This document shows, piece after piece, positions 9,984-31,838 of a DNA stretch of 64,000 nt (within the stretch, counting starts at the first letter, position 1; the number at the start of each line of letters is the position of its first letter). The stretch is from assembly GCF_054482525.1 (NCBI RefSeq), contig NZ_CM137006.1; one strand, written 5' to 3'. The position numbers and the translations under genes are program-made. The notes below the pieces were generated by a model. That model was not told where the DNA came from, did not search any database, and saw only the letters and a program-made list of their open reading frames with translations.

Positions 9984-10177
9984 AGTGCGCAGATCCGGAT
10001 AGATGTGTAGATGATGCATGAGCAGAAATGGGCAATGAAACACGGGCGACTATTTTGCGGCAAAAGAGGCCAGCCGCAAAAGCAGTGCGTGCTTTAAGAG
10101 ATAAAAAAACGTGACACTGTAACCTATTATTGCCGAATTGCGCGTAATCGTCACCATCCGGCAATAATAAGGTGATC

Positions 10178-10792
10178 CTATCGAAAGAGTGGTTTAACCG
10201 CGACAGGAATTAACAGTTGTGATTGCCATTGCGCCAGCGTTAAGCGAGCCAGTTCACCCAGTGCACGGTAGAAAGGGTGTTCTGCTTTTTCGATAAAAAC
10301 GTCAAGAAAACGTGTTGACCACGGAAAAAGGTGCCATGCCAGCAATTCTTCGCATTCTGTCTGGCGACCATTCTCCGCCAACCACGCAGCCATCAAGAGC
10401 AGTGAACCAAAATGATCTTCCGGTTCGTTTTGCTTCATTTCAAACTGAATGCCTTTCTCGCGCATCCACTGACGAAGTGCCAATGTTGAATCGCCAAACA
10501 GCACAGATTCGCGATCCAGCCAGACCGACCCCCACGGCGGTGATGGCAGAGCCCACGGACCGACAAACAAACGCTGCCAGGCCTGGGCGCGAGTCTCTTC
10601 ACTCTGTGCCTGAAAAGCCGTCACCAGCGGCGCTAATGACGCTTCTGGTAGAGGCCACTGAGTTTCCCAGCCGTCACGGGTGAGTACCGCAACCAGAGGT
10701 GCGGCTTCCGCACTCTCTGGAGCGTAATAAAACAGCGCGCCCAACACGCGCGCCGCGACAGAAAAATTATCTTGCTGTGAAAAATGGGTCAT
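10178..10792 (-). CDS. dmsD: Tat proofreading chaperone DmsD (twin-arginine leader-binding protein)
   Basis: 204 aa from MTHFSQQDNFSVAARVLGALFYY; sits directly downstream of ynfH. Confidence 0.9.
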   Translation of the reverse strand: MTHFSQQDNFSVAARVLGALFYYAPESAEAAPLVAVLTRDGWETQWPLPEASLAPLVTAFQAQSEETRAQAWQRLFVGPWALPSPPWGSVWLDRESVLFGDSTLALRQWMREKGIQFEMKQNEPEDHFGSLLLMAAWLAENGRQTECEELLAWHLFPWSTRFLDVFIEKAEHPFYRALGELARLTLAQWQSQLLIPVAVKPLFR

Positions 10793-10834
10793 TCCTAACA
10801 TCCTGAAATGTGCGGGTTGCCCCGCACCAATTTG

Positions 10835-11689
10835 TTAACCTGCAATAGCCATTCCTACCGTCATGTGCAGGCCATAAAAGAGCACACGCCCGATCATCTC
10901 ACCGCCAAGTATGAGGATTAGCCCCAGAATAAGTCCGGCAACGTGAGGTTCACGGCGACGAATGAGCGGACAAAGCCAGCATCCTAGACCTGTGCATAAC
11001 AATACCACACGCCAGACCTGTAAGGAGGCGTAATCTGGTACCAGTGCGCTGGCTTGTTGTACGGATGAGTGAATAGACGCCAGAGACAAACCTTGCAGCA
11101 CAATCACCCCGGCACAAGCGATCAGCGCCAGAACGCTAATGATGGCAAATGGTGTGGTATTAAATGTAACGCGGGCTGCCCGCAGAATTGTGGCAGCAAG
11201 TATTGGACCGCTCAACAATACTGTCAGGAAGAAAGCCAGCGTAGTGTAACCGTTATACCAGGTTGGCACTGTGTCGATTTGATACACGCAGGTCATCATC
11301 CAGACGAAAATGACGCCGAGCGCCATGCTGACAAGTAACCAGAGTTTCCCCAACGCTTGCGGCATTTTACCGATGACCGCCACCAGCCACCATAATCCGC
11401 CAACGGCAAAAAATATGGAACCGGCAGCAATCTCGTTACTCAGACCAGAAGCTCCGATTCGATTCAGCGAGTTAAACGCCCGCAGTGGGGATCCCAGGTG
11501 CATGACAGAGGCAATAAACCCGATGCCCATCAACAGCCAGAGGAAAAACATGCCACGGACAATACGCTGACGGTCTGCGTCATTATTGGCGGCGAACCAG
11601 CCAATTCCGCTAACAATCAGCGCGCCTACTACGCATTGACCCAATACGGTAAAGATAACCAGTGGCCATTCATGCCATCCATTTCCCAT
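10835..11689 (-). CDS. ynfH: DMSO-reductase-type membrane anchor subunit YnfH (DmsC paralogue)
   Basis: 284 aa from MGNGWHEWPL; start lies 1 nt after ynfG stop; the longer 364-aa track ORF would overlap ynfG. Confidence 0.88.
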   Translation of the reverse strand: MGNGWHEWPLVIFTVLGQCVVGALIVSGIGWFAANNDADRQRIVRGMFFLWLLMGIGFIASVMHLGSPLRAFNSLNRIGASGLSNEIAAGSIFFAVGGLWWLVAVIGKMPQALGKLWLLVSMALGVIFVWMMTCVYQIDTVPTWYNGYTTLAFFLTVLLSGPILAATILRAARVTFNTTPFAIISVLALIACAGVIVLQGLSLASIHSSVQQASALVPDYASLQVWRVVLLCTGLGCWLCPLIRRREPHVAGLILGLILILGGEMIGRVLFYGLHMTVGMAIAG

Positions 11690-11690
11690 T

Positions 11691-12308
11691 TTACACTTCC
11701 TCCGGATTAGCCAGATAACCAGTGGTATCGCCGGTCGGGCGGCTGTTGGCGTTAGGTTTGATAACGATATTGGGTTTTGTGAAATGCGCGCGCGGTAGTG
11801 GCGCGACGGCAGCCAGAGTGCCGTGCTTCTGGCGCAGCTCTTCAATTGGACCGAACTCAAGTGCACGCAGCGGGCAGGATTCGACACATATGGGTTGTTT
11901 CCCCTCGGCGACGCGCGAATAACAACCATCGCACTTCGTCATGTGTCCTTTTTCAGCATTGTACTGTGGCGCGCCGTACGGACAAGCCATGTGGCAGTAG
12001 CGGCAGCCGATACAAACATCTTCATCAACCACCACAAAGCCATCTTCACGCTTATGCATTGCGCCGCTGGGGCAGACTTTTGTACATGCGGGGTCATCGC
12101 AATGGTTACAGGAGATGGAGAGATAATAAGCGAACACGTTCTGGTGCCAGACGCCATTATCTTCCTGCCAGTCGCCGCCAGCATATTCATAAATACGGCG
12201 GAAACTGACTTCCGGGCCAAGATCTTTAAAATCTTTGCACGCCAGTTCGCAGGTTTTACAGCCAGTACAGCGGCTGGAATCGATAAAAAATCCATATTGT
12301 GTGGTCAT
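11691..12308 (-). CDS. ynfG: DMSO-reductase-type 4x[4Fe-4S] ferredoxin subunit YnfG (DmsB paralogue)
   Basis: 205 aa with four CxxCxxCxxxCP clusters visible in translation. Confidence 0.92.
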   Translation of the reverse strand: MTTQYGFFIDSSRCTGCKTCELACKDFKDLGPEVSFRRIYEYAGGDWQEDNGVWHQNVFAYYLSISCNHCDDPACTKVCPSGAMHKREDGFVVVDEDVCIGCRYCHMACPYGAPQYNAEKGHMTKCDGCYSRVAEGKQPICVESCPLRALEFGPIEELRQKHGTLAAVAPLPRAHFTKPNIVIKPNANSRPTGDTTGYLANPEEV

Positions 12309-12318
12309 GGGCTACTCC

Positions 12319-14745
12319 TTAAACCTTTTCGATCTGGACAAGATTGCTGTGCGACGGGTTTCCCTTTGCCAGCGGTGAAGGGCGGTGAGAGGTCAGAATA
12401 TTGATACTGCCGCCGTGATCGACCCGGTCACTAAACATATCCGCTTTAAGCCACGCACCTTGCCCGATGGCGGTAACGCCAGGCAGAATACGCGGAGTCA
12501 CTTTTGCGGCAATCAGCATTTCTCCATTATTGTTAAATACCCGCACGGTATCGCCATGACGGATACCGCGTGCCTGAGCATCAATAGGGTTGATCCACAC
12601 CTCTTGTGGGCAGGCCTGCTGTAACACATCAATATTGCCGTAGCTGGAGTGGGTACGCGCTTTGTAGTGGAAGCCCGTTAGCTGCAGTGGATAGGTTTTC
12701 CGCAGGGGATCGTCCCAGCCATCAAAACCTGGGGTATACGCAGGAAGGGGATGAATAATTTCATCTTTTTTCAATTCCCAGGTATCTGCAATCTTCGCCA
12801 GTCGTTCAGAATAAATTTCGATTTTCCCCGAAGGTGTTTTCAACGGGTTTGCCTGTGGATCTTCACGGAATGCGCGGAAAGCGACGTAGTGTTCTTCCGG
12901 GCATTTTTTCTTAAAGATCCCGGTCGTTTTCATCTCCTCGTAGTCGGGCATCTCAGGGTTACGTTCCTTCGTTTTCGCATGGAGATATTTGATCCATTCG
13001 TGCTGACTGCGGCCTTCAGTAAAGGTTTGATAAACGTCTGGTCCTAAGCGTTTGGCGACTTCACTCAGAATCCAGTAGATGGGTTTGCGTTCAAATTTTG
13101 CTGAGGTTGCGGGTTGGGCGAGGATCACATAGCCCATATTCCCGGCAGATTCGTGAGAGATAAGGTCTTCTTGCTCTGTTGGCATCAGGTCGGGCAACAG
13201 GATATCGCAATACTTAGCCGAGGCAGTCATGAAGTGGTCAATGCCAACAATCATCTCGCACTTGCTGTCATCCTGAAGCACCTCATGGGTGTGATTGATG
13301 TCGCCATGTTGATTGATCAATGTGTTACTGGCGTAGCACCATAAAAACTTGATGGGGACATCCAGTTTTTCTTTTCCACGAACACCATCACGGGTCGCGG
13401 TCATTTCCGTACCATGGTCGATGGCATCTGTCCATGTAAAGACGGAAATCTGCGTTTTAACAGGATTCTCGAGCATCGGGAACCATTCTACCCCCAGATC
13501 CCAGCTACCTTCGCGTACACCTGAGTTGCCGCCGTTTATGCCGACGTTACCTGTGAGAACGGAAAGCATGGCAATAGCGCGGGACGTTTGTTCGCCGTTG
13601 GAGTGTCGTTGTGGCCCCCAACCCTGACAAATATAAGCAGGTTTTGCTGAACCGATCTCTCGTGCCAAATGGATAATTTTTTCTGCCGGGATGCTGGTGA
13701 TTTTTGCTGCCCATTCCGGCGTTTTAGCTATGCCGTCAGGCCCTTCGCCCAGAATATAGGCTTTATAATGCGCGTTACGTGGTGCGTTGGCGGGCAGCGT
13801 TTTTTCATCATAACCAACACAATATTTGTCGAGAAATGGCTGATCGACCATGTTTTCAGTAATCAGTACCCAGGCAATCGCACAGGCCAGTGCTCCATCG
13901 GTGCCAGGGCGAATGGGCAGCCATTCATCTTCACGTCCGGCAGCTGTGTCGTTATAACGTGGATCGATGACGATCATGCGTGCATTTGAACGTTCGCGGG
14001 CTTGCTCGACGTAGTAAGTGACACCACCGCCGCTCATCCGCGTTTCTGCCGGGTTATTTCCGAACATAACGACCAGTTTCGTATTGGCGATATCATCCGG
14101 GCTGTTGCCATCATTGGCACCGAACATATAACTCATTGCGGCACTGATTTGAGCGGTACTGTAGCTGCCATAGCGACTGAGAAAACCACCGCAAGAGTTC
14201 ATCAGACGGTACGGGACGTTCGAGTTGGTGATGTTTCCGCCATCTACGCCTGTTCCGTACAGGACATGTACAGCCTCATTGCCGTAATCTTTTAGGATCC
14301 GCCGAAGATTATCACTGATGGTATCCAGGGCTTCGTCCCAACTTATCCGTTCAAATTTACCTTCACCGCGCTTGCCGACGCGCTTCATGGGATATTTCAG
14401 CCGATCAGGATGATTCATCCGTCGGCGGATAGAGCGCCCGCGTAAACACGCCCGAACCTGATGATTACCGTAAACGTCGTCACCTGTCGTATCAGACTCC
14501 ACCCAGTACACAGTGTCATCTTTCACATGCAAACGTAACAGACAGCGGCTCCCGCAGTTAACGGTGCAGGAACTCCAGACCGCTTTCTCTTCTACCGGTG
14601 CCTCTGCCGCTCGGACCATTTGGGAAAATGGCAGAGTGAAAGCACTGCTTGCCAGCGCGAGACTGCCAAGTGCGGAGGTTTTCATCAGACTTCTACGGCT
14701 GATTTCAGCCTTCATGAGCGCCTCTGTGGTATGGATTTTCATCAT
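12319..14745 (-). CDS. ynfF: Tat-exported molybdopterin oxidoreductase catalytic subunit YnfF (DmsA paralogue)
   Basis: 808 aa; twin-arginine signal SRRSLMKTSALGSLALA; N-terminal Cys cluster CTVNCGSRC. Confidence 0.92.
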   Translation of the reverse strand: MMKIHTTEALMKAEISRRSLMKTSALGSLALASSAFTLPFSQMVRAAEAPVEEKAVWSSCTVNCGSRCLLRLHVKDDTVYWVESDTTGDDVYGNHQVRACLRGRSIRRRMNHPDRLKYPMKRVGKRGEGKFERISWDEALDTISDNLRRILKDYGNEAVHVLYGTGVDGGNITNSNVPYRLMNSCGGFLSRYGSYSTAQISAAMSYMFGANDGNSPDDIANTKLVVMFGNNPAETRMSGGGVTYYVEQARERSNARMIVIDPRYNDTAAGREDEWLPIRPGTDGALACAIAWVLITENMVDQPFLDKYCVGYDEKTLPANAPRNAHYKAYILGEGPDGIAKTPEWAAKITSIPAEKIIHLAREIGSAKPAYICQGWGPQRHSNGEQTSRAIAMLSVLTGNVGINGGNSGVREGSWDLGVEWFPMLENPVKTQISVFTWTDAIDHGTEMTATRDGVRGKEKLDVPIKFLWCYASNTLINQHGDINHTHEVLQDDSKCEMIVGIDHFMTASAKYCDILLPDLMPTEQEDLISHESAGNMGYVILAQPATSAKFERKPIYWILSEVAKRLGPDVYQTFTEGRSQHEWIKYLHAKTKERNPEMPDYEEMKTTGIFKKKCPEEHYVAFRAFREDPQANPLKTPSGKIEIYSERLAKIADTWELKKDEIIHPLPAYTPGFDGWDDPLRKTYPLQLTGFHYKARTHSSYGNIDVLQQACPQEVWINPIDAQARGIRHGDTVRVFNNNGEMLIAAKVTPRILPGVTAIGQGAWLKADMFSDRVDHGGSINILTSHRPSPLAKGNPSHSNLVQIEKV

Positions 14746-14802
14746 TACTCACTTATTGCTTTTCAAACAAAATGTCATGCCAGAATTTATGGTTGTAGTG
14801 GG

Positions 14803-17229
14803 TTATATTTTTTCGATCTCGACCAGATTAGTGTGCTGCGGGTTTCCCTTCGCCAGTGGTGAAGGGCGCAGAGTGGTTAGCGTATTCACACAGCCGCCAT
14901 GGTCGATTTTATCGCCAGACATATTGGCCTCGTGCCAGGCTCCCTGACCCATAGCGCTAACCCCAGGGAGAATGCGTGGTGTCACTTTGGCTGTTAGCCG
15001 AACTTCGCCACGATGGTTATACACCCGCACCATATCGCCGTTGGCAATCCCACGTTTCTGTGCATCTATAGGGTTGATCCACACTTCCTGACGGCAGGCT
15101 GCCTTCAGGACATCAATATTGCCGTAGGTCGAGTGAGTACGGGATTTGTAATGGAAACCAAACAGTTGCAGTGGAAAGGTACTACGTTCAGGGGAGTCCC
15201 AGCCTTCAAAGGTTGAGGCATAAACCGGCAGTGGGCTTATCACTTCATCTTTTTCCAGTTCCCAGGTACGGGCAATTTCCGCCAGCTTGCTGGAATAAAT
15301 TTCAATCTTACCGGAAGGCGTTTTAAGTGGATTTGCCTCGGGGTCGTCACGAAATGCTTTGTAGGCGACAAAATGACCATTAGGATCTTTACGCTTATAG
15401 ATACCCATTTTTTTCAGTTCGTCGTAAGACGGTAACGCCGGATCTTTGGCAAGCATTTTGGCGTACAGATGTTGTAACCATTGTTCCTGCGTGCGACCTT
15501 CTGTGAACTTTTGATAGACGTCAGGTCCAAGACGTTTCGCGACCTCACTCAGGATCCAGTAAATCGGTTTGCGTTCGAATTTTTCGCTGGTGACTGGCTG
15601 AAGGAAAATGAGATATCCCATGTTACCGGCGTAGTCGTTAGGAATAATATCTTCCTGCTCAACGGTCATCAGGTCTGGCAGCAGAATGTCGGCATATTTT
15701 GCCGATGAGGTCATAAAGTTTTCGATGACCACAATCATTTCGCATTTCGATTCGTCCTGCAGAATTTCATGCGTTTTGTTGATGTCAGAATGCTGATTAA
15801 CCAGGGTATTTCCCGCGTAGTTCCAGATGAACTTAATGGGCACATCCAGTTTATCTTTGCCGCGGACACCGTCGCGGATTGCCGTCATTTGCGGGCCATG
15901 ATCGATAGCATCCGTCCAGCTGAAGCAGGAGATTGACGTTTTGACCGGATTATCCAGCACCGGCAGGCGTTCTATGGTAATGGTATAGGTCGATTCACGC
16001 GCGCCACTATTCCCGCCGCTGATGCCGACATTGCCCGTCAGAATAGGCAACATCGCAATAGCGCGTGCAGTCAGCTCGCCGTTTGCCTGGCGTTGCGGCC
16101 CCCAGCCCTGGCAGATATAAGCGGGTTTTGCTGTGCCAATTTCACGAGCCAGCTTGATGATACGGTCCACCGGGATACCGGTAATTTGCGAAGCCCACTG
16201 CGGCGTTTTCGCTGTTTTATCATCACCTTCACCAAGAATATAGGCTTTATAGTGACCATTTTTTGGTGCATCTGCGGGTAAGGTTTTTTCGTCATAGTCG
16301 ACGCAGTATTTATCGAGAAAAGGTTGATCAACGAGATTTTCGTTAATCAATACCCAGGCAATACCCGCAACCAGCGCGGCATCGGTGCCCGGGCGAATAG
16401 GAAGCCATTCATCTTCACGACCAGCAGCTGTATCGGTATATCGCGGATCGATAACAATCATTTTTGCGTTCGATTTCTCGCGCGCTTTTTCAAGAAGATA
16501 AGTGATGCCACCGCCGCTCATGCGGGTTTCTGCCGGGTTGTTACCAAACATCACGACCAGCTTGCTGTTTTCAATATCCGTGGTGCTGTTGCCATCATTA
16601 CTGCCGTAGGTGTAGGGCATGGCACAGGAAATTTGCGCGGTGCTGTAGGAGCCATACTGGTTGAGTGAACCGCCGTAGCAGTTCATCAGGCGTTTGACCG
16701 CCGAGGCGGATGGCGAAGAGCGGGTCATATTGCCGCCAACGATCCCTGAAGAGTACTGAATATATACAGCCTCATTGCCATATTGTTCGACGGTTTTTTT
16801 CAGGCTACTGGCGATAGTATCCAGGGCTTCATCCCAGCTAATCCGTTCGAATTTGCCTTCGCCGCGTTTGCCCACGCGTTTCATTGGGTAATTCAAGCGA
16901 TCGGGATGATTAATACGTCGACGGATGGACCGACCGCGCAAACAGGCGCGTACTTGATGATTGCCATACTCGTCGCTGCCGGTGTTGTCAGTTTCCACCC
17001 AGGTGACTTCATTATCTTTAACATGTAGACGAAGTGCACAGCGGCTACCACAGTTGACGGAACAGGCACCCCAGACCACTTTTTCGCTGGCCTGTTGTAC
17101 CGCTGCCGCTGCACTGCGCAGGGTGAACGGTAAAGAAAAACCGCCTGCAGCCAGCGCCAGAGAACCTATCGCGGTAGATTTAACGAGTGTTCTGCGGCTG
17201 ATGCCCACCATTTGTTCATTTTTGGACAT
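14803..17229 (-). CDS. ynfE: Tat-exported molybdopterin oxidoreductase catalytic subunit YnfE (DmsA paralogue; selenate reductase component)
   Basis: 808 aa; twin-arginine signal SRRTLVKSTAIGSLALA; closely related to adjacent ynfF (tandem paralogues). Confidence 0.92.
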   Translation of the reverse strand: MSKNEQMVGISRRTLVKSTAIGSLALAAGGFSLPFTLRSAAAAVQQASEKVVWGACSVNCGSRCALRLHVKDNEVTWVETDNTGSDEYGNHQVRACLRGRSIRRRINHPDRLNYPMKRVGKRGEGKFERISWDEALDTIASSLKKTVEQYGNEAVYIQYSSGIVGGNMTRSSPSASAVKRLMNCYGGSLNQYGSYSTAQISCAMPYTYGSNDGNSTTDIENSKLVVMFGNNPAETRMSGGGITYLLEKAREKSNAKMIVIDPRYTDTAAGREDEWLPIRPGTDAALVAGIAWVLINENLVDQPFLDKYCVDYDEKTLPADAPKNGHYKAYILGEGDDKTAKTPQWASQITGIPVDRIIKLAREIGTAKPAYICQGWGPQRQANGELTARAIAMLPILTGNVGISGGNSGARESTYTITIERLPVLDNPVKTSISCFSWTDAIDHGPQMTAIRDGVRGKDKLDVPIKFIWNYAGNTLVNQHSDINKTHEILQDESKCEMIVVIENFMTSSAKYADILLPDLMTVEQEDIIPNDYAGNMGYLIFLQPVTSEKFERKPIYWILSEVAKRLGPDVYQKFTEGRTQEQWLQHLYAKMLAKDPALPSYDELKKMGIYKRKDPNGHFVAYKAFRDDPEANPLKTPSGKIEIYSSKLAEIARTWELEKDEVISPLPVYASTFEGWDSPERSTFPLQLFGFHYKSRTHSTYGNIDVLKAACRQEVWINPIDAQKRGIANGDMVRVYNHRGEVRLTAKVTPRILPGVSAMGQGAWHEANMSGDKIDHGGCVNTLTTLRPSPLAKGNPQHTNLVEIEKI

Positions 17230-17388
17230 AACTCACTCCCTGTTCTTTATCGTTATATAAAAGTTTATATATTGAATATTTAGCGCGCTAACAATAGAGG
17301 GAGTCTACCCATTTTGGGTTAAGAATTATTAATCCATATCAATAGAAGGGTATGAGTAATAAGGTGGGATTATGTTGTATGTTCAAAT

Positions 17389-17411
17389 CGCCGGATGTGT
17401 CGTATCCGGCG
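17389..17411 (-). terminator. REP-like palindrome gccggatg...tatccggc downstream of ynfD
   Basis: inverted repeat seen directly; resembles enterobacterial REP/terminator hairpins. Confidence 0.4.
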
Positions 17412-17427
17412 TTCAGTCGATAATGTG

Positions 17428-17733
17428 TTACTGCGGTTCGGCAGGCGCGCCATCCTGGGTAGACTGCGCGGGAGCAGAGACGTTACCGCTGGTGGTGCGG
17501 GTGTAGAGAATTTTATGCGTATCATTAGCGCAATGCCCGACGACCTGGGAATCAGGCTGATCAACCTGGTCATTGGGTACAATACTTAACGTGAAGCTGC
17601 TTTCGGGTACGCCATTATTGATAATGCGCTGTGATATATCGCTCTGTATGCGCTCACAGGATCCCGGCGCGGCGAGTACCGCGGGTGAGGCGAAGGCGAG
17701 CAGAAGCGCGGCACAGCAGGTTGAGAGTTTCAT
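17428..17733 (-). CDS. ynfD: secreted DUF1161-family protein YnfD
   Basis: 101 aa from MKLSTCCAALLLAFASPAVLA (signal peptide); track ORF is 14 codons longer. Confidence 0.85.
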   Translation of the reverse strand: MKLSTCCAALLLAFASPAVLAAPGSCERIQSDISQRIINNGVPESSFTLSIVPNDQVDQPDSQVVGHCANDTHKILYTRTTSGNVSAPAQSTQDGAPAEPQ

Positions 17734-17840
17734 CATAAGCTCCTTACGCGAAGATAACTTCTTTAAGCATAGCATTTAACGTGTAAAGTACTGTATTTGC
17801 TACTATGATTGAGAATCATCTCTACTCTCTGGTGACTGTT

Positions 17841-18551
17841 GTGAAATACAAATTACTGCCATGCTTACTCGCGATATTCCTCACAGGATGTGACCGCACA
17901 GAGGTAACACTTTCATTTACCCCTGAGATGGCCAGTTTCTCTAATGAATTCGATTTTGATCCGCTGCGTGGTCCGGTAAAAGATTTCACTCAGACATTAA
18001 TGGATGAGCAAGGTGAAGTGACGAAACGTGTTTCGGGGACTTTGTCGGAAGAAGGCTGTTTTGATTCACTCGAATTACTGGATCTGGAAAATAATACCGT
18101 GGTCGCTCTGGTACTGGACGCCAATTATTACCGTGATGCCCAGACACTGGAGAAAAGAGTTCGTTTGCAGGGAAAATGCCAGCTTGCAGAATTACCTTCT
18201 GCCGGGGTGAGCTGGGAAACCGATGATAATGGCTTTGTGATTAAAGCCAGCAGCAAACAGATGCAGATGGAATATCGCTATGATGATCAGGGGTATCCGC
18301 TGGGTAAAACCACGAAAAGTAACGACAAAACATTATCTGTCAGCGCTACGCCATCAACGGATCCGATCAAAAAGTTAGATTACACAGCGGTTACTTTACT
18401 GAATAATCAAAGGGTTGGAAATGTAAAACAGAGCTGTGAATATGACAGTCACGCCAATCCGGTGGACTGTCAGCTAATCATTGTTGATGAAGGAGTAAAA
18501 CCCGCCGTCGAACGGGTTTACACCATCAAAAATACTATCGATTATTATTAA
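17841..18551 (+). CDS. ynfC: lipoprotein YnfC (UPF0257 family)
   Basis: GTG start giving MKYKLLPCLLAIFLTGC (lipobox LTGC) with GGTGA upstream; in-frame ATG at 17805 is the alternative start. Confidence 0.8.
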   Translation: MKYKLLPCLLAIFLTGCDRTEVTLSFTPEMASFSNEFDFDPLRGPVKDFTQTLMDEQGEVTKRVSGTLSEEGCFDSLELLDLENNTVVALVLDANYYRDAQTLEKRVRLQGKCQLAELPSAGVSWETDDNGFVIKASSKQMQMEYRYDDQGYPLGKTTKSNDKTLSVSATPSTDPIKKLDYTAVTLLNNQRVGNVKQSCEYDSHANPVDCQLIIVDEGVKPAVERVYTIKNTIDYY

Positions 18552-22459: not shown

Positions 22460-23827
22460 ATGACAATAGAAAAACACGAAAGAAGCACTAAGGATTTGGT
22501 GAAAGCAGCAGTATCGGGATGGCTGGGCACTGCGCTTGAATTTATGGATTTCCAGTTATATTCGCTCGGCGCAGCGTTAGTGTTTCATGAAATATTTTTT
22601 CCTGAATCATCAACGGCAATGGCGTTAATTCTGGCAATGGGAACCTACGGTGCAGGTTATGTGGCGCGTATTGTCGGAGCATTTATTTTCGGCAAAATGG
22701 GCGACAGAATCGGGCGTAAAAAAGTGCTCTTTATTACCATCACTATGATGGGGATCTGTACCACCTTAATTGGTGTGCTGCCGACCTATGCACAAATTGG
22801 TGTGTTTGCGCCAATTTTGCTGGTGACGCTGCGTATTATTCAGGGATTGGGTGCAGGTGCGGAAATTTCTGGTGCCGGTACGATGCTGGCGGAATATGCG
22901 CCAAAAGGTAAGCGCGGAATTATCTCCTCATTTGTGGCTATGGGAACTAACTGCGGAACCTTGAGCGCAACGGCAATCTGGGCCTTTATGTTCTTCATTC
23001 TCAGTAAAGAGGAACTGCTGGCGTGGGGATGGCGTATACCGTTCCTGGCGAGCGTTGTCGTGATGGTCTTTGCTATCTGGTTGCGTATGAATCTGAAAGA
23101 AAGCCCGGTCTTTGAGAAGGTTAACGACAGCAACCAACCGACAGCAAAATCTGCACCTGCTGGTAGCATGTTCCAGAGCAAATCCTTCTGGCTGGCAACA
23201 GGGCTGCGTTTTGGTCAGGCTGGTAACTCCGGTTTAATTCAGACTTTCCTCGCAGGCTATTTAGTGCAGACGTTATTGTTTAACAAAGCAATTCCAACAG
23301 ATGCATTGATGATCAGTTCGATTCTCGGCTTTATGACCATTCCGTTCCTTGGTTGGTTATCCGATAAAATAGGTCGCCGGATCCCGTATATTATTATGAA
23401 TACCTCTGCGATTGTGCTGGCGTGGCCAATGCTTTCTATCATCGTAGATAAAAGCTATGCCCCGAGCACCATTATGGTTGCACTGATTGTGATTCATAAC
23501 TGTGCGGTGCTGGGATTATTTGCTCTGGAAAACATTACCATGGCAGAAATGTTCGGCTGTAAAAACCGCTTTACCCGGATGGCCATTTCTAAAGAAATTG
23601 GTGGTCTTATCGCTTCCGGTTTTGGTCCTATCCTGGCGGGTATTTTCTGCACCATGACGGAATCCTGGTATCCGATCGCCATTATGATCATGGCATATTC
23701 AGTGATTGGTTTAATCTCTGCGCTGAAAATGCCAGAAGTGAAAGACCGTGATTTAAGTGCACTGGAAGATGCCGCGGAAGATCAACCGCGTGTTGTAACA
23801 GCTGCGCAACCTTCAAGAAGTCTGTAA
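22460..23827 (+). CDS. ydfJ: MFS-type transporter YdfJ, full-length 455 aa
   Basis: uninterrupted ORF 58 bp downstream of rspB; from memory this gene is split by Qin prophage in K-12 MG1655. Confidence 0.85.
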   Translation: MTIEKHERSTKDLVKAAVSGWLGTALEFMDFQLYSLGAALVFHEIFFPESSTAMALILAMGTYGAGYVARIVGAFIFGKMGDRIGRKKVLFITITMMGICTTLIGVLPTYAQIGVFAPILLVTLRIIQGLGAGAEISGAGTMLAEYAPKGKRGIISSFVAMGTNCGTLSATAIWAFMFFILSKEELLAWGWRIPFLASVVVMVFAIWLRMNLKESPVFEKVNDSNQPTAKSAPAGSMFQSKSFWLATGLRFGQAGNSGLIQTFLAGYLVQTLLFNKAIPTDALMISSILGFMTIPFLGWLSDKIGRRIPYIIMNTSAIVLAWPMLSIIVDKSYAPSTIMVALIVIHNCAVLGLFALENITMAEMFGCKNRFTRMAISKEIGGLIASGFGPILAGIFCTMTESWYPIAIMIMAYSVIGLISALKMPEVKDRDLSALEDAAEDQPRVVTAAQPSRSL

Positions 23828-23916
23828 ATCCTCCATCCCTTCTCTTACCGGAGAGGGGATTTTTTATTCATATAACAAAACATGCAGCTTGCCATATTTA
23901 TATTTAAGGAATTGTT

Positions 23917-25377
23917 ATGGGAAATAATTTGTTATCAGCAAAAGCGACGCTCCCTGTTTATGATCGTAATAACCTGGCCCCAAGAATTGTTCATTTAGGC
24001 TTTGGTGCATTTCACCGTGCGCATCAGGGCGTGTATGCCGATATTCTTGCTACGGAACATTTCAGTGACTGGGGATATTATGAGGTCAATTTAATCGGCG
24101 GCGAACAGCAAATTGCCGATTTACAACAGCAAGATAATCTTTATACCGTTGCGGAAATGTCGGCCGATGCGTGGACGGCTCGCGTCGTTGGCGTCGTTAA
24201 AAAAGCCTTGCACATACAAATAGATGGCTTAGAAACCGTGCTGGCTGCGATGTGTGAACCGCAAATCGCGATTGTCTCTCTGACAATCACCGAAAAAGGG
24301 TATTTCCACTCTCCGGCGACCGGACAGTTAATGCTCGATCACCCGATGGTCGTTGCCGACGTACAAAATCCCCACCAGCCGAAAACTGCAACAGGGGTGA
24401 TTGTCGAGGCGCTGGCTCGCCGTAAAGCGGCAGGTCTTCCCGCATTTACCGTCATGTCATGTGACAACATGCCAGAAAACGGTCATGTTATGCGTGACGT
24501 TGTCACTTCCTACGCGCAAGCTGTTGATGTAAAACTGGCACAATGGATCGAAGAAAACGTGACTTTCCCATCAACAATGGTGGACCGTATTGTGCCCGCA
24601 GTGACGCAGGATACGCTGGCGAAAATCGAACAACTTACCGGTGTGCGCGATCCTGCGGGCGTTGCCTGTGAACCTTTCCGCCAGTGGGTAATAGAAGATA
24701 ACTTTGTTGCCGGACGTCCGGAATGGGAAAAAGCGGGAGCCGAACTGGTTAGTGATGTGCTGCCTTATGAAGAGATGAAGTTGCGCATGCTCAACGGCAG
24801 TCATTCATTCCTGGCGTATCTGGGGTATCTTGCCGGATATCAGCACATTAATGACTGCATGGAAGATGAACATTATCGTCATGCAGCGTATGCCTTGATG
24901 TTGCAGGAACAAGCGCCGACGTTGAAAGTGCAGGGCGTTGATTTGCAAGATTACGCTAACCGATTAATTGAACGCTATAGCAACCCGGCGCTACGTCATC
25001 GAACCTGGCAGATTGCGATGGATGGCAGCCAGAAATTGCCACAGCGGATGTTGGATTCTGTTCGCTGGCATCTGGCGCATGACAGCAAGTTCGATCTGCT
25101 GGCGCTGGGCGTCGCAGGTTGGATGCGTTATGTCGGTGGTGTTGATGAACAGGGAAATCCGATAGAAATCAGTGACCCACTGTTACCTGTTATTCAGAAG
25201 GCTGTACAAAGTAGTGCCGAAGGGAAAGCGCGCGTCCAGTCATTGCTGGCGATTAAGGCGATCTTTGGTGATGATTTGCCAGACAATAGCTTGTTTACTG
25301 CAAAAGTGACGGAAGCGTACTTGTCTTTATTAGCGCATGGTGCGAAAGCGACCGTGGCGAAATATTCCGTGAAGTAA
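23917..25377 (+). CDS. ydfI: mannitol-dehydrogenase-family oxidoreductase YdfI
   Basis: 486 aa; N-terminal Rossmann-like [12 protein letters not shown]; matches YdfI as recalled. Confidence 0.88.
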
Positions 25378-25384
25378 AAAAAGC

Positions 25385-25405
25385 AATGCCGCCATCGGCG
25401 GCATT
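25385..25405 (-). terminator. hairpin aatgccgcc/ggcggcatt with flanking A/T runs between convergent ydfI and ydfZ
   Basis: 9-bp perfect stem; on minus strand followed by GCTTTTTTTA (ydfZ terminator); A-tract on plus side suggests bidirectional use. Confidence 0.6.
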
Positions 25406-25412
25406 CACACGC

Positions 25413-25616
25413 TTAGTTCATGCCGAGACGAATCAGGTCCAGAGGTGCCAGTTTCTCTTCACAACCTTCAACAACTACGGTTTTTCCGCGGCGGATTTGC
25501 TCAGCGGTCAGACCTTCAGTATCAATCGACAGGATCTTGCCAGTGTGACCGGTGCCGCTAACCATAACACGGCTGCCAGTGGTGATTGCGTTACGGTTAC
25601 GATCGTAGGTCGTCAT
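25413..25616 (-). CDS. ydfZ: small protein YdfZ (67 aa; putative selenium-binding)
   Basis: 67-aa ORF matches YdfZ as recalled. Confidence 0.85.
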
Positions 25617-25792
25617 AGGTGTTTTCTCCTTTCTGATTTACAGTCGAAGCCCACGTAACGGGCGCACTATAAATACTCCTGTCGAGTGAAATATTTTTTG
25701 TTTTTGATCAAGCTCACATCTTTTTTGATGCATGCATGAGCCATAAGGCGGGGGGAAAGACTCTCACCCCGGATGGGATGAGAGGAAATGAA

Positions 25793-26479
25793 TTACTCTT
25801 CGCTAAACCAGTCGCTGTTTTCCTGACGGATCTGGCGCACGGATTCGCTGATTTCCTGCAAATGTTGCGTCATTGCACGTTCTACCGCATCGCCATCACG
25901 TTTTTGCAGGGCAGAGAAAATCTCAAGATGCTGGCGTAACAGCATTTCTGGTGGAGAAACGTGGTCGAAACTCATATAGCGCACGCGATCAACGGTCGCT
26001 TTCAGGTTCTCAATGGTATCCCACGCCAGTTGACAGTCGGCAATCTGGGTCAGGAGTTGATGGAAGTTGTCATCAAGTTCAAAAAAATCATCCAGTTGCT
26101 TGCGCTCAATGGCAATGCGTTGCTGGTGAAGATTTTGTTCCAGTTGGTAGCACTGGCTTTCGGTAATCATGCTCGCCGCCCGACGCGCCACCGCGCACTC
26201 AATGGCCTGACGGATAAAACTGCCGTTGCGCACCTGGGCCATGGAAATTTTGTTGACGTAGCTGCCACGCTGCGGACGAATTTGAATCAGGCCGTTTTCC
26301 GCCAGTTTAATAAAGGCTTCACGAACCGGCTGGCGTGACACATTGAAACGAACAGAAACTTCTTTTTCCGACAACGGTGTGCCTGGTGCAATCAGGCAAT
26401 GGACAATGTCGCGACGAAGAATACGATAAATCTGCTGATTGACAGGCTGTGTGGGATTAAGTTGCGTTTCGACGGTCAT
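25793..26479 (-). CDS. ydfH: GntR/FadR-family transcriptional regulator YdfH
   Basis: 228 aa with N-terminal GntR-type HTH. Confidence 0.88.
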
Positions 26480-26567
26480 TCGTTCTTGCTTGTGAGTGAG
26501 TTAACTGCATGAGTCTACCACTTTTTTGTGACAAGCAATAACCCGGCAGTTACGCCGGGTATAAAAA

Positions 26568-27314
26568 TTACTGACGGTGGACATTCAGTCCGGCATAGCT
26601 TTGGGTAACCGGCATCATTTCCAGGGTATTGATATTGACGTGAGCAGGCAGCGTTGACACCCACCAGACGGCTTCGCTGACATCTTCTGGCGTCAATGCA
26701 ACGGTATTTTGATAGGTTTTTTCCGCTTTACCGTCATCGCCTTTAAAGCGGACATTGGAAAACTCGGTGCCACCCACCAGACCCGGCTCGATGTCGGTGA
26801 CGCGCACCGCCGTACCATGCAGGTCCGTACGCAGATTCAGGCTAAACTGACGAACAAACGCTTTCGTCGCACCGTAAACGTTACCACCGGCATACGGCCA
26901 GCTACCAGCCGTTGAGCCAATGTTAATAATATGACCATGATTACGTTCAACCATACCCGGTAAGACGGCGCGCGTCATATATACCAGGCCTTTGTTGTTG
27001 GTATCAATCATCGTTTCCCAGTCTTCAACGCTGGCTTTATGCGCAGGCTCCATGCCCAACGCCAGACCGGCATTATTTACCAGGATATCAATATTGCACC
27101 ACTCGGCAGGAAGCGATGCCAGCATCTCTTCAATAGCGGCGCGGTTGCGAACGTCCAGTTGGGCGATATACAGATTATCTCCCAGTTCGTCTTTTAACTC
27201 CTGCAACCGCTCCTGGCGACGGCCAGTGGCGATAACTTTATGCCCTTGTTGAATAAAACGACGAGTAATGCATTCACCAAAACCTGCCGTTGCTCCAGTT
27301 ACTAAAACGATCAT
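26568..27314 (-). CDS. ydfG: NADP-dependent 3-hydroxy acid dehydrogenase YdfG (SDR family)
   Basis: 248 aa from MIVLVTGATAGFGE (TGxxxGxG) with catalytic YGATK motif. Confidence 0.92.
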   Translation of the reverse strand: MIVLVTGATAGFGECITRRFIQQGHKVIATGRRQERLQELKDELGDNLYIAQLDVRNRAAIEEMLASLPAEWCNIDILVNNAGLALGMEPAHKASVEDWETMIDTNNKGLVYMTRAVLPGMVERNHGHIINIGSTAGSWPYAGGNVYGATKAFVRQFSLNLRTDLHGTAVRVTDIEPGLVGGTEFSNVRFKGDDGKAEKTYQNTVALTPEDVSEAVWWVSTLPAHVNINTLEMMPVTQSYAGLNVHRQ

Positions 27315-27450
27315 CTCACTGTTCCTCAACGCTTTTGTGTGTCAATAACATAGCACGTGATGCTTAAGAGCGGGTAATACTGGTTTGCAAGATTGCACTC
27401 CGTTATCAGTAAGCCTACGCTATGGAACACCTCGCGTTCAGGAGAAGAAA

Positions 27451-29496
27451 ATGACAACAATGAATCCTTTCCTTGTGCAAAGCACACTGCCGTATCTGGC
27501 TCCCCATTTTGATCAAATTTCCAATCATCACTATCGCCCGGCATTCGATGAGGGAATGCTGCAAAAGCGGGCAGAAATTACTGCCATCGCGCTTAACCCG
27601 CAAACGCCTGATTTCAACAATACTATTCTGGCACTGGAACAAAGCGGAGAATTACTTACCCGCGTTACCAGCGTCTTTTTTGCGATGACTGCGGCGCATA
27701 CCAATGATGAATTACAGCGTCTTGATGAACAGTTTTCCGCTGAACTGGCGGAACTGGCTAATGATATCTATCTGAACGGTGAATTATTCGCGCGGGTAGA
27801 TGCTGTCTGGCAGCGCCGAGAATCCCTGGGGCTTGATAGTGAATCCATCCGCCTGGTGGAGGTGATTCATCAACGTTTTGTCCTTGCCGGAGCCAAACTT
27901 GCGCAAGCTGATAAAGCAAAATTAAAAGTACTGAATACAGAAGCTGCGACCCTGACCAGCCAGTTTAACCAGCGGTTACTGGCAGCAAATAAATCCGGCG
28001 GTCTGGTTGTGAACGATATCGCGCAGCTGGCAGGAATAAGTGAGCAAGAGATTGCGCTGGCGGCAGAGGCGGCTCGCGAGAAAGGTCTGGATAACAAATG
28101 GCTGATTCCGCTGCTGAATACCACCCAACAACCGGCGCTTGCCGAAATGTGCGATCGCGCGACGCGTGAAAAACTGTTTATTGCGGGCTGGACGCGAGCG
28201 GAAAAAAATGATGCCAATGATACCCGCGCTATCATTCAACGTCTGGTGGAGATCCGTGCACAACAGGCAACATTACTTGGTTTTCCTCATTATGCCGCAT
28301 GGAAAATCGCCGATCAGATGGCAAAAACACCTGAAGCAGCACTCAACTTTATGCGGGAAATTGTTCCAGCGGCGCGTCAACGTGCGAGCGATGAATTAGC
28401 CTCCATACAGGCGGTTATTGATAAGCAGCAGGGCGGGTTTAGCGCGCAGCCGTGGGACTGGGCATTTTATGCCGAGCAGGTAAGACGTGAGAAATTCGAT
28501 CTCGATGAATCGCAGCTCAAGCCATATTTTGAATTAAACACGGTGTTGAATGAAGGTGTATTCTGGACCGCGAATCAGCTCTTCGGTATTAAGTTTGTCG
28601 AACGTTTTGATATTCCTGTCTACCATCCTGACGTTCGTGTGTGGGAAATTTTTGATCATAATGGCGTGGGGCTGGCGTTATTTTACGGTGATTTCTTCGC
28701 CCGTGATTCAAAAAGCGGCGGTGCATGGATGGGCAATTTTGTTGAGCAATCAACGCTTAATGAAACGCACCCGGTAATTTATAACGTCTGCAATTATCAG
28801 CAACCCGCCGCTGGGGAGCCTGCGTTGTTACTCTGGGATGATGTCATAACCTTATTCCATGAATTTGGTCATACGCTGCACGGCCTTTTTGCCCGCCAGC
28901 GTTATGCCACGCTTTCCGGCACCAACACGCCGCGTGATTTTGTCGAATTTCCGTCGCAAATCAACGAACACTGGGCAACGCATCCGCAGGTATTCGCTCG
29001 CTACGCCCGGCATTATCAGAGCGGGGCAGCAATGCCTGAAGAGCTGCAACAGAAAATGCGTAATGCCAGCCTGTTCAACAAAGGGTATGAGATGAGCGAA
29101 CTGCTTAGCGCCGCACTTCTCGATATGCGCTGGCATTGCCTGGAAGAAAACGAAGCAATGCAGGATGTCAATGATTTCGAATTGCGGGCGCTGGTGGCAG
29201 AAAATATGGATCTTCCCGCTATACCGCCACGCTATCGCAGCAGTTATTTCGCCCATATTTTTGGTGGCGGATATGCCGCAGGTTATTACGCTTATCTGTG
29301 GACGCAAATGTTGGCCGATGATGGTTACCAGTGGTTTGTTGAGCAGGGCGGATTAACGCGTGAAAATGGGCTGCGTTTTCGCGAGGCGATCCTTTCCAGA
29401 GGTAACAGCGAGGATCTGGAACGCCTGTATCGACAATGGCGCGGTAAGGCACCTCAGATTATGCCGATGCTGCAACATCGTGGCTTGAACGTATAA
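27451..29496 (+). CDS. dcp: dipeptidyl carboxypeptidase II Dcp (M3 zinc metallopeptidase)
   Basis: 681 aa from MTTMNPFLVQ with GGAGAAG RBS; HEFGH zinc-binding motif present; track ORF begins 22 codons upstream. Confidence 0.92.
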   Translation: MTTMNPFLVQSTLPYLAPHFDQISNHHYRPAFDEGMLQKRAEITAIALNPQTPDFNNTILALEQSGELLTRVTSVFFAMTAAHTNDELQRLDEQFSAELAELANDIYLNGELFARVDAVWQRRESLGLDSESIRLVEVIHQRFVLAGAKLAQADKAKLKVLNTEAATLTSQFNQRLLAANKSGGLVVNDIAQLAGISEQEIALAAEAAREKGLDNKWLIPLLNTTQQPALAEMCDRATREKLFIAGWTRAEKNDANDTRAIIQRLVEIRAQQATLLGFPHYAAWKIADQMAKTPEAALNFMREIVPAARQRASDELASIQAVIDKQQGGFSAQPWDWAFYAEQVRREKFDLDESQLKPYFELNTVLNEGVFWTANQLFGIKFVERFDIPVYHPDVRVWEIFDHNGVGLALFYGDFFARDSKSGGAWMGNFVEQSTLNETHPVIYNVCNYQQPAAGEPALLLWDDVITLFHEFGHTLHGLFARQRYATLSGTNTPRDFVEFPSQINEHWATHPQVFARYARHYQSGAAMPEELQQKMRNASLFNKGYEMSELLSAALLDMRWHCLEENEAMQDVNDFELRALVAENMDLPAIPPRYRSSYFAHIFGGGYAAGYYAYLWTQMLADDGYQWFVEQGGLTRENGLRFREAILSRGNSEDLERLYRQWRGKAPQIMPMLQHRGLNV

Positions 29497-29507
29497 ACAC
29501 CACCAAT

Positions 29508-29537
29508 GGCTGGCCTGGAGAAATCGCCAGGCCAGCC
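29508..29537. repeat. 11-bp perfect inverted repeat (ggctggcctgg / ccaggccagcc) between dcp stop and ydeJ remnant
   Basis: seen directly; no U-tract on either side, so terminator or REP-like element. Confidence 0.5.
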
Positions 29538-29540
29538 TGG

Positions 29541-29700
29541 TTAGAGTAGTAATTGCAGCAGCTGGGCGAGGGCAAACCTCACCGCTAATGCGAATGCCGT
29601 TTCGCAGTCGCCAGCAAAATTACTTTTTTTGTATACCCTTCCGTTATAATAATTTTCAAATTTATAAATCTGATTGTTCTGAAATATGTTTAAGACTCTT
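29541..29700 (-). pseudogene. ydeJ: 3'-terminal remnant of CinA/PncC-family gene ydeJ (about 50 codons; start and most of gene absent)
   Basis: minus-frame translation ...NGRVYKKSNFAGDCETAFALAVRFALAQLLQLLL* resembles CinA C-terminal domain end (compare PncC ...FSGDRDAVRRQATAYALQTLWQQFL); no ORF >=60 aa in the 364-bp dcp-ydeI gap where K-12 has a ~520-bp gene. Confidence 0.4.
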
Positions 29701-29860
29701 TAATCTTCTTCTTACTTTAGTGAGTAAAACTCTCTGAATATTTGACAGCTAGTTGCCTGATTTTAAATGCCTTATAACAATTGGCAGTATTCTTATTTGT
29801 CAATTATAAAAATAGCAACCAGACTTAATAAGTCAAACCAAACGCAATTAAGGAGTCAGT

Positions 29861-30253
29861 ATGAAATTTCAGGCCATTGTATTAGCAAGTTTTCTTGTCA
29901 TGCCTTATGCGTTGGCAGATGACCAGGGCGGATTAAAACAGGATGCAGCGCCACCGCCGCCTCATGCAATAGAAGATGGCTATCGCGGAACCGATGATGC
30001 AAAAAAAATGACCGTTGATTTCGCAAAAAAAATGCACGATGGCGCTTCGGTTTCACTACGCGGTAATTTGATTTCTCACAAAGGAGAGGACCGTTACGTT
30101 TTTCGCGATAAGAGCGGTGAAATTAATGTCGTTATTCCTGCGGCCGTCTTTGATGGACGAGAAGTTCAGCCGGACCAGATGATCAACATTAGCGGCAGTC
30201 TGGATAAGAAAAGCGCGCCGGCCGTCGTTCGGGTCACTCATTTGCAGAAATAA
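29861..30253 (+). CDS. ydeI: periplasmic BOF/YgiW-family stress protein YdeI
   Basis: 130 aa with signal peptide; AAGGAG RBS; matches YdeI as recalled. Confidence 0.88.
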
Positions 30254-30507
30254 AAATAAATTAGCCTGATGGCCTGAACTACTGGGCCATTAGGGTATTG
30301 GGTTATGCTATTTGTCATCCTTTTATTTACGATAATGCAGAGGTAATTTACAGAATTAAACACTTTTTTATCTGCTGATTTTGTTTCAAATCACAATGTT
30401 ATCTCAGAGATGACTCATAACTTAGGATTTCTATGAAAATATTGACGTAATTTTGCTTTTCTCTCGTTAGAATAGCGCGCACAAGGAACTGTGAAAAAGG
30501 AGTGGCA

Positions 30508-31398
30508 ATGATCAAGAAGACAACGGAAATTGATGCCATCTTGTTAAATCTCAATAAGGCTATCGATGCCCACTACCAGTGGCTGGTAAGTATGTTTCAC
30601 AGCGTAGTCGCGAGAGATGCCAGTAAGCCAGAAATAACGGATAACCATTCTTATGGACTGTGCCAGTTTGGTCGGTGGCTTGATCATCTGGGGCCACTCG
30701 ATAACGATGAATTACCTTACGTTCGGCTAATGGATTCTGCCCATCAACATATGCATAACTGTGGTCGGGAATTAATGCTGGCTATTGTTGAAAATCACTG
30801 GCAGGACGCGCATTTCGGCGCCTTTCAGGAAGGGTTGCTTTCTTTTACTGCGGCATTAACCGATTACAAAATTTATTTGCTGACGATCCGTAGCAATATG
30901 GATGTTTTGACGGGATTGCCGGGTCGTCGGGTTCTTGATGAATCCTTTGATCATCAGTTACGCAACGCTGAGCCTCTGAATCTTTATTTAATGTTGTTGG
31001 ATATTGACCGATTTAAATTGGTTAATGATACCTACGGGCATTTAATCGGCGATGTAGTATTACGCACCCTGGCAACTTACTTAGCCAGTTGGACGCGTGA
31101 TTACGAAACGGTTTATCGCTACGGGGGCGAAGAATTTATCATTATTGTCAAAGCGGCTAATGATGAAGAAGCATGTCGTGCAGGTGTCAGAATTTGCCAG
31201 TTAGTCGATAACCATGCCATCACACATTCTGAAGGGCATATCAACATTACCGTGACAGCAGGTGTCAGTCGCGCATTTCCTGAAGAGCCTCTGGATGTGG
31301 TCATTGGAAGAGCGGACCGGGCAATGTATGAGGGTAAGCAAACCGGAAGAAATCGCTGTATGTTTATTGACGAACAAAACGTGATTAACCGAGTTTAA
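30508..31398 (+). CDS. dgcZ: zinc-regulated diguanylate cyclase DgcZ (YdeH)
   Basis: 296 aa from MIKKTT; N-terminal chemoreceptor zinc-binding-type domain and C-terminal GGDEF domain with RYGGEEF. Confidence 0.92.
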   Translation: MIKKTTEIDAILLNLNKAIDAHYQWLVSMFHSVVARDASKPEITDNHSYGLCQFGRWLDHLGPLDNDELPYVRLMDSAHQHMHNCGRELMLAIVENHWQDAHFGAFQEGLLSFTAALTDYKIYLLTIRSNMDVLTGLPGRRVLDESFDHQLRNAEPLNLYLMLLDIDRFKLVNDTYGHLIGDVVLRTLATYLASWTRDYETVYRYGGEEFIIIVKAANDEEACRAGVRICQLVDNHAITHSEGHINITVTAGVSRAFPEEPLDVVIGRADRAMYEGKQTGRNRCMFIDEQNVINRV

Positions 31399-31449
31399 GC
31401 TCCGTTTAACATTCATTGAGAAAACTGATGCTACTGTGTCAACGATCCG

Positions 31450-31541
31450 TTATCAGTGCAGGAAAATGCCTGTTAGCGTAAAAGCAAAACACAAATCTAT
31501 CCATGCAAGCATTCACCGCCGGTTTACTGGCGGTTTTTTTT
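31450..31541 (+). ncRNA. mgrR: candidate small RNA MgrR (PhoP-regulated), 3' end defined by hairpin ccgcc/ggcgg plus T8
   Basis: intrinsic terminator 31516-31541 in the dgcZ-mgtS gap where MgrR maps in K-12; 5' end not determined; could instead be the dgcZ terminator. Confidence 0.35.
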
Positions 31542-31616
31542 CGCCGTCATAAAAATCAGGCCCCTTGTACAAAGTTGTAACAAGGGGCCGGTTAGGTGAG
31601 GGATTATCTCCGTTCA

Positions 31617-31712
31617 TTAGTCATCCCATTTGTGGCTGAAATACGCGGCCAGAAAACCAGAAAATAAAATTATTCCCAGTACGGCCATAAAAATATTCAT
31701 ATTACCCAGCAT
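31617..31712 (-). CDS. mgtS: 31-aa small membrane protein MgtS (YneM), MLGNMNIFMAVLGIILFSGFLAAYFSHKWDD
   Basis: ATG with GGAGG Shine-Dalgarno; TAA stop followed by hairpin 31561-31589; below ORF-track cutoff. Confidence 0.8.
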   Translation of the reverse strand: MLGNMNIFMAVLGIILFSGFLAAYFSHKWDD

Positions 31713-31838
31713 TATTTGCCTCCGTTTATGGTGTGGTGTGTTTCCTCGCTTACCTTAATTTTCATCTCAATGAGAAAGATATTAGCAGAGGTAACCTAAA
31801 CGAAGGCTGAATTAAATTTTTATTGTGTTCGACTTAAA

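Follow-up and report, generated by a model that had tools for sequence, protein, structure and literature searches.

Sequence analysis of a canonical ynfEFGH-dmsD selenate reductase operon in a 64,000-nucleotide window of an Escherichia coli genome

We analysed a stretch of 64,000 nucleotides of contig NZ_CM137006.1 (RefSeq assembly GCF_054482525.1), referred to here as the window, and conclude that positions 10178-17229 almost certainly hold the intact, canonical Escherichia coli ynfEFGH-dmsD operon, encoding a selenate reductase that works by the mechanism proposed below. The operon lies on the minus strand, as do all of its elements described here. A scan for open reading frames (ORFs) yields five successive frames of 808, 808, 205, 364 and 207 amino acids, located at 14803-17229, 12319-14745, 11691-12308, 10835-11929 and 10178-10801, respectively. 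RefSeq labels the identical sequence ynfE, ynfF, ynfG, ynfH and dmsD, the same five names that had been given in an earlier reading of the sequence (the original prediction). The two adjacent 808-codon paralogues described there correspond to the first two frames, with ynfF shortened to 807 amino acids by RefSeq, and both the RefSeq annotation and the NCBIfam models agree with the assignment to a known DmsABC-like selenate/dimethyl sulfoxide (DMSO) reductase paralogue system. Plus-strand ORFs of 80-193 amino acids within the operon are fully overlapped by the long minus-strand genes, and nothing marks them as genes. The ynfEFGH-dmsD locus is already known, annotated and experimentally studied, and the copy in the window is unremarkable.

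The locus was compared with 5,426 complete E. coli genomes using megablast with positions 10000-17800 as the query. The stretch is matched in 5,424 of them, and the chromosome of E. coli SCU-102 matches at 100% nucleotide identity. Gene order is as in E. coli K-12 (clcB-dmsD-ynfHGFE-ynfD-ynfC-speG), with clcB, bioD and mlc on one flank of the operon and ynfD, ynfC, speG, ynfB, ynfA and rspAB on the other. The K-12 selenate/tellurate reductase operon (b1587-b1591) thus has the same genes, order, lengths and flanks, and differs from the window copy by allelic variation only, with 129 nucleotide differences over the five genes together. The products align to their K-12 counterparts without gaps, at 98.6% (YnfE), 99.6% (YnfF), 100% (YnfG), 97.9% (YnfH) and 98.0% (DmsD) identity, and no frameshift was found.

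The two catalytic subunits are distinct members of the same family. YnfE (14803-17229, 808 residues) and YnfF (12319-14742, 807 residues from the second ATG, or 808 from position 14745) align end to end with 70.8% identity (BLASTP, E = 0), and are 67.5% and 66.6% identical, respectively, to K-12 DmsA; these pairwise identities support the paralogy that had been proposed. Gene-specific profiles separate the three proteins. YnfE scores 1793 bits against the YnfE model NF041885 (cut-off 1675) and only 1473 bits against the YnfF model (cut-off 1650), whereas YnfF scores 1770 bits against the YnfF model NF041884 (cut-off 1650) and only 1479 bits against the YnfE model (cut-off 1675). Both fall below the cut-off of the DmsA model NF011566 (1341 and 1318 bits for YnfE and YnfF; cut-off 1600). 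The domains PF04879 (Molybdop_Fe4S4), PF00384 (Molybdopterin oxidoreductase) and PF01568 (Molydop_binding) score above their gathering thresholds in both proteins.

The motifs expected of a periplasmic molybdoenzyme are present in both subunits, which are predicted to carry a molybdenum-bis(molybdopterin guanine dinucleotide) cofactor (Mo-bisMGD) and to be exported by the twin-arginine translocation (Tat) system. The twin-arginine signals that had been ascribed to both are found as SRRTLVK at residues 11-17 of YnfE and SRRSLMK at residues 15-21 of YnfF (common form SRRxLxK), each followed by a hydrophobic stretch and then an AxA site. In the literature the YnfE and YnfF leaders are treated as DmsD-binding Tat signals (PMC3316669; PMC5203670). 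The shared N-terminal cysteine cluster, also noted in the original prediction, has the form C-x3-C-x3-C-x31-C and comprises C56/60/64/96 in YnfE and C59/63/67/99 in YnfF, matching the pattern of the FS0 iron-sulfur cluster in DmsA (C63/67/71/104). The predicted molybdenum ligand of YnfE, Ser196, aligns with Ser147 of the Rhodobacter sphaeroides DMSO reductase (1eu1; phmmer). Ser195 of YnfF and Ser205 of DmsA lie within the same YS(T/S)AQI motif, which reads YSTAQI in YnfF.

The remaining three genes encode the partners that had been predicted downstream, namely a four-cluster ferredoxin, a membrane anchor and the chaperone DmsD. YnfG (11691-12308, 205 residues) is a ferredoxin subunit with four predicted [4Fe-4S] clusters; its 16 cysteines fall into four groups (14/17/20/24, 67/70/75/79, 99/102/105/109 and 126/129/141/145) at the same positions as in DmsB, and it scores 264.8 bits against the DmsB-family equivalog TIGR02951 (cut-off 214.1). 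YnfH (10835-11689, 284 residues) is a DmsC-family membrane anchor, predicted to oxidise quinol. Residues 1-274 match positions 1-275 of the 275 in the Pfam profile PF04976 (DmsC; E = 2.7e-127), and the hydropathy plot has eight hydrophobic peaks. Pfam DmsC is the only profile matched by YnfH, with no hit among the NCBIfam models, while the other four products pass gene- or family-specific NCBI models. The 364-residue frame of the mechanical ORF scan (10835-11929) overextends ynfH upstream into ynfG. DmsD (10178-10792, 204 residues) is the Tat proofreading chaperone, a redox enzyme maturation protein for DmsA, YnfE and YnfF; it scores 344.6 bits against the equivalog NF008632 (cut-off 162), and residues 1-204 match the crystal structures of E. 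coli DmsD (PDB 3u41, 3efp and 3cw0; E ~1e-134). The ynfG start lies 10 nucleotides past the ynfF stop and the ynfH start a single nucleotide past the ynfG stop, which suggests coupled translation.

Expression of the operon is probably governed from the 198-bp spacer between ynfD and ynfE. A scan for the FNR consensus TTGAT-N4-ATCAA with one mismatch allowed identifies an FNR box, TTGATatggATTAA, at 17329-17342, with half-sites TTGAT and ATTAA (9 of 10 consensus positions) and a centre at 17335.5 that precedes the ynfE ATG by 106.5 bp. In the original prediction no convincing box of this kind had been recognised ahead of ynfE, although the box lies within the interval that it named (17230-17427); this is the sole error in its interpretation. 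One-mismatch matches are not rare in themselves, as the 64-kb window contains seven against 3.1 expected, and the weight that we give to this box comes instead from its position, its conservation in K-12 and published data. The box is located 28-35 bp upstream of a candidate -10 hexamer, TAGACT (17302-17307), read from the sequence, a spacing that corresponds to class II activator geometry. Chromatin immunoprecipitation followed by sequencing places ynfEFGH-dmsD among the operons directly activated by FNR, with one site at -40.5 (Myers et al. 2013, PMC3688515). With this published position as the anchor, transcription would start near 17295, the FNR centre then being at -40.5.

A regular-expression search for the NarL consensus heptamer TACYYMT returned two exact matches in the same spacer, where 0.11 would be expected from the window-wide frequency, and the two flank the FNR box. 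The heptamer TACTCAT (17352-17358) is located upstream of the box, at about -63 to -57 from the putative start, and the inverted heptamer ATGGGTA (17306-17312; reverse complement TACCCAT) extends over the 5'-terminal two bases of the -10 hexamer. NarL may act through one or both of these candidate sites, and the position of the second would fit repression by occlusion of the -10 element. Published work describes repression of ynfEFGH-dmsD by NarL (PMC6561318, with reference to Xu et al. 2009), and ynfE-promoter reporter strains are induced in anaerobiosis and silenced by nitrate, which fits activation by FNR and repression by NarL (PMC6561318). K-12 has the same FNR and NarL motifs, and its spacer departs from that of the window at two bases only, each within the loop of the ynfD terminator hairpin. 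A Shine-Dalgarno sequence, GGGAG (17236-17240), precedes the ynfE ATG by 6 nucleotides. The same region holds a perfect 12-bp palindrome, TTAGCGCGCTAA, at 17280-17291, within the putative ynfE 5' untranslated region, and a perfect 8-bp inverted repeat with a 2-nucleotide spacer, TATATAAA-CT-TTTATATA, at 17254-17271. Both are identical in K-12 and lie (17254-17291) between the putative transcription start and the ynfE ribosome-binding site.

Gene identities and integrity, motifs, domains, paralogue distances and promoter motifs with their conservation are established for this locus. For enzyme activity, electron path, export route and the action of FNR and NarL, we rely on the literature (PMC5203670 and PMC12724226 for the mechanism of the selenate reductase) or on homology with DmsABC. 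In the mechanism that we favour, a single FNR-dependent class II promoter upstream of ynfE would be switched on in anaerobiosis and repressed by nitrate via NarL. YnfE and YnfF would serve as alternative catalytic subunits, each containing a serine-ligated Mo-bisMGD cofactor and, near the N-terminus, one [4Fe-4S] cluster. DmsD would hold the twin-arginine leader in the cytoplasm until insertion of the cofactor and of FS0, and folding, are complete; the Tat system would then export the folded catalytic subunit, most likely together with YnfG, for docking onto the eight-helix anchor YnfH. Electrons would pass from menaquinol at YnfH via the four YnfG clusters and FS0 to the molybdenum, where selenate would be converted to selenite on the periplasmic side of the membrane; tellurate would be reduced too, and so would S-oxides, at least by YnfF.

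Published work covers several of these steps. E. coli no longer reduces selenate once ynfEF is deleted (PMC12724226), DmsD is required (PMC5203670) and binds the YnfE leader (PMC3316669), and tellurate reduction is attributed to Fujita et al. 2021, as cited in PMC12096835. Every sequence feature needed by the proposed mechanism is present and intact in the window.

The architecture is shared with E. coli DmsABC, which likewise combines a Tat-exported Mo-bisMGD subunit carrying FS0, a four-cluster ferredoxin and a haem-free eight-helix anchor, uses DmsD as the chaperone, and is activated by FNR from a site near -41. The two systems are nevertheless distinct. YnfH is 58.5% identical to DmsC, YnfE and YnfF do not reach the DmsA-specific cut-off given above, and the ynf operon, with its tandem pair of catalytic genes and dmsD, contrasts with dmsABC, which has a single catalytic gene and lacks a gene for a chaperone. 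The closest known relatives outside E. coli are orthologous Tat- and DmsD-dependent, membrane-bound selenate reductases, encoded by ynfEFGH-dmsD in Salmonella enterica and by srnABCD in Enterobacter cloacae. For Enterobacter SrnA, an identity of 86.2% with E. coli YnfE is reported, together with complementation of an E. coli ynfEF deletion (PMC12724226). In contrast to the window, with its two catalytic genes, Enterobacter cloacae has srnA as its single catalytic gene. Residues L24 and A28 of the YnfE leader and V16 of DmsD, which are important in Salmonella (PMC5203670), are present in the window. YnfE accounts for most of the activity in Salmonella; for E. coli it is less clear how much each paralogue contributes.

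A few observations weigh against the canonical assignment, or at least temper it. In the generic Tat-signal model TIGR01409 (cut-off 16.7 bits) the N-terminus of YnfF passes with 20.5 bits, but that of YnfE reaches only 12.2 bits despite its twin-arginine motif, so that YnfF alone is recognised by this profile. A search of a copy of the PDB returned no solved structure of the DmsA/YnfE type, the nearest being TorA and DorA at E ~1e-75; the subunit arrangement is therefore drawn from published models and from homology with DmsABC. We infer rather than observe the transcription start and the sites of NarL action. Finally, YnfE carries 11 amino-acid substitutions relative to K-12, among them G311D. 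Codon 311 (15874-15876) specifies Asp in the window, and Gly in both K-12 YnfE and the window YnfF, within the motif CVGYDEKTLP; presumably DmsA also has Gly at the equivalent position. YnfF differs from its K-12 counterpart at only three residues. Nothing in the sequence contradicts the reading of the locus as a canonical ynfEFGH-dmsD operon.

Additional elements are found between and behind the genes. The 42-nucleotide spacer between ynfH and dmsD contains a GC-rich hairpin, GUGCGGGGCAACCCGCAC, at 10810-10827 (-17.8 kcal/mol, z = -3.1), picked up in a search for terminator-like structures, which may act in attenuation or stabilise the mRNA and might uncouple expression of dmsD from that of ynfEFGH. 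Downstream of dmsD, and before clcB, a long hairpin (10113-10177; -27.1 kcal/mol, z = -4.3, with none of 200 shuffled sequences equally stable) leads into seven consecutive U residues (10103-10109), and together these elements (10103-10177) plausibly form the operon terminator. A sigma-70-like internal promoter for ynfF was considered, and the consensus scan found none in the 57-60-nucleotide spacer between ynfE and ynfF; over the whole region there are 6 promoter-like sites, compared with 9.1 in shuffled sequences. The RNA of this spacer is not stably folded (z = +0.7). We also considered whether the operon contains a structured RNA or a riboswitch, for instance one for the molybdenum cofactor (Moco), and positions 10000-17900 give no Rfam match at gathering thresholds.

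Elsewhere in the window, a lambdoid (Qin-like) prophage remnant adjoins rspAB and extends over approximately 22590-33900. Its genes include an integrase, an excisionase, an exonuclease, dicB, ydfD, Cro/CI-type regulators, a YdaT-family toxin and hokD. Rfam gives a single hit over the whole window, the Hfq-binding small RNA STnc560 (31410-31623, plus strand; 279 bits, full length), which by coordinate conversion is located in or beside this prophage-like region, near a DUF4209 gene.

Alternative readings concern what the enzyme reduces and how old the duplication is. It is possible, though in our judgement unlikely, that the main role is that of an S-/N-oxide reductase, either as a back-up DMSO reductase or in the repair of oxidised sulfur compounds, methionine sulfoxide among them, under hypochlorite stress, with selenate and tellurate reduction as side activities. 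Identity to the Dms counterpart is 67% for the catalytic subunits (DmsA) and 94% for YnfG (DmsB), and the first description of the operon presented it as a paralogue of DmsABC (Lubitz and Weiner 2003, as represented in papers that cite it). In addition, exposure to HOCl raises ynfE transcription, which is higher still in uropathogenic E. coli mutated in dmsA (PMC12096835), and the ynfE promoter is active in the gut, where selenate is scarce (PMC6561318). However, selenate reduction is lost with ynfEF (PMC12724226), the curated NCBI names are selenate/tellurate reductase, HOCl induces ynfE only about twofold (PMC12096835), and we found no substrate kinetics for Ynf in the accessible literature. 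This alternative bears on the substrate only, and is compatible with the mechanism that we favour. Recent gene conversion, as opposed to an old and constrained duplication, could in principle account for the similarity between Ynf and Dms proteins or for the divergent ynfE allele, and we regard it as extremely improbable. In its favour, the identity between YnfG (11691-12308) and K-12 DmsB (94.1%) far exceeds that between the catalytic subunits and DmsA or between YnfH and DmsC, and the window ynfE allele is uncommon, with only 6 of 5,319 records at an identity of at least 99%. Nei-Gojobori estimates over the ynf/dms paralogue pairs point the other way. Synonymous sites are saturated in every pair (proportion of synonymous differences, pS, 0.70-0.75), and the tandem duplication of ynfE and ynfF and the split from the dms genes are therefore ancient. 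For ynfG/dmsB, a saturated pS of 0.73, a nucleotide identity of just 81% and a ratio of nonsynonymous to synonymous substitution rates (dN/dS) of 0.013 speak against recent gene conversion, and the likeness of the two proteins reflects extreme purifying selection. The corresponding dN/dS values are 0.10 for ynfE/ynfF, 0.07-0.08 for either gene versus dmsA and 0.12 for ynfH/dmsC. Conversion of the window ynfE by ynfF or dmsA was rejected as well: its 62 nucleotide differences from K-12 ynfE are evenly spread along the gene and have no bias towards either donor, with the window allele matching ynfF at 20 of the variant sites and the K-12 allele at 21. The divergence of this ynfE is ordinary allelic divergence.

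A further alternative holds that only YnfE matters, and that ynfF is a redundant copy in the process of being lost, which contributes nothing in the window strain. YnfF makes little contribution to selenate reductase activity in Salmonella (PMC5203670), and on the pangenome scale ynfE and ynfF are among the most frequently pseudogenised metabolic genes of E. coli (PMC13322260). Of the complete E. coli genomes, 5,111 have ynfE at full length and 4,749 (~87%) have ynfF at full length, and this gap is almost wholly due to one ynfF allele. A junction-specific query finds that allele in 546 of the 5,426 complete genomes; it lacks nucleotides 715-1294 (580 bp, frameshifting) and 2069-2342 (274 bp), with ynfE, ynfG, ynfH and dmsD intact. 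We nevertheless consider it improbable that ynfF is dispensable here. Unlike the deletion allele, the window ynfF (12319-14742) is intact, close to its K-12 counterpart and in possession of all cofactor motifs, and the gene is full length in the large majority of complete genomes. The dN/dS of 0.10 between ynfE and ynfF implies that both copies are under purifying selection, and together with the saturated synonymous sites it argues for constraint on ynfF over a very long time. YnfFGH can, reportedly, support growth on DMSO. Other natural disruptions of the operon are deletions mediated by insertion sequences. In strain 2EC1, ISEc52 stands in place of the 3' part of ynfE plus ynfF and ynfG, and in strain MB07152, IS1 stands in place of a segment that begins at ydfJ and reaches into the 5' part of ynfF.

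That it is incompletely defined which paralogue is active under which condition, as had been stated in the original prediction, agrees with the literature, in which YnfF is minor in Salmonella (PMC5203670) and the E. coli proteins are regarded as isoenzymes and have been deleted jointly (PMC12724226). In uropathogenic E. coli it is ynfE, and hardly ynfF, that responds to HOCl and to the loss of dmsA (PMC12096835). Among the carriers of the ynfF deletion allele are O25b:H4 strains of sequence type 131 (ST131) and the ST131 reference strain EC958, in which ynfF expression was measured in that 2025 study (PMC12096835). Because ynfF of EC958 is a deletion pseudogene, the ynfF transcript reported there comes from a pseudogene, and the literature should be read with the caution that ynfF is a deletion pseudogene in ST131, EC958 included.

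We speculate, tentatively and with the balance of our judgement against it, that YnfE and YnfF are non-redundant heads that compete for one YnfG-YnfH module and act on different substrates, for example selenate and tellurate versus S-/N-oxides formed in oxidative stress. The window, in which both genes are intact and ordinary, is neutral on this idea. If the idea is correct, the fixed ynfF deletion of the pandemic ST131 lineage (~10% of complete genomes) would reflect a shift in anaerobic or stress physiology specific to that lineage, and not neutral decay.

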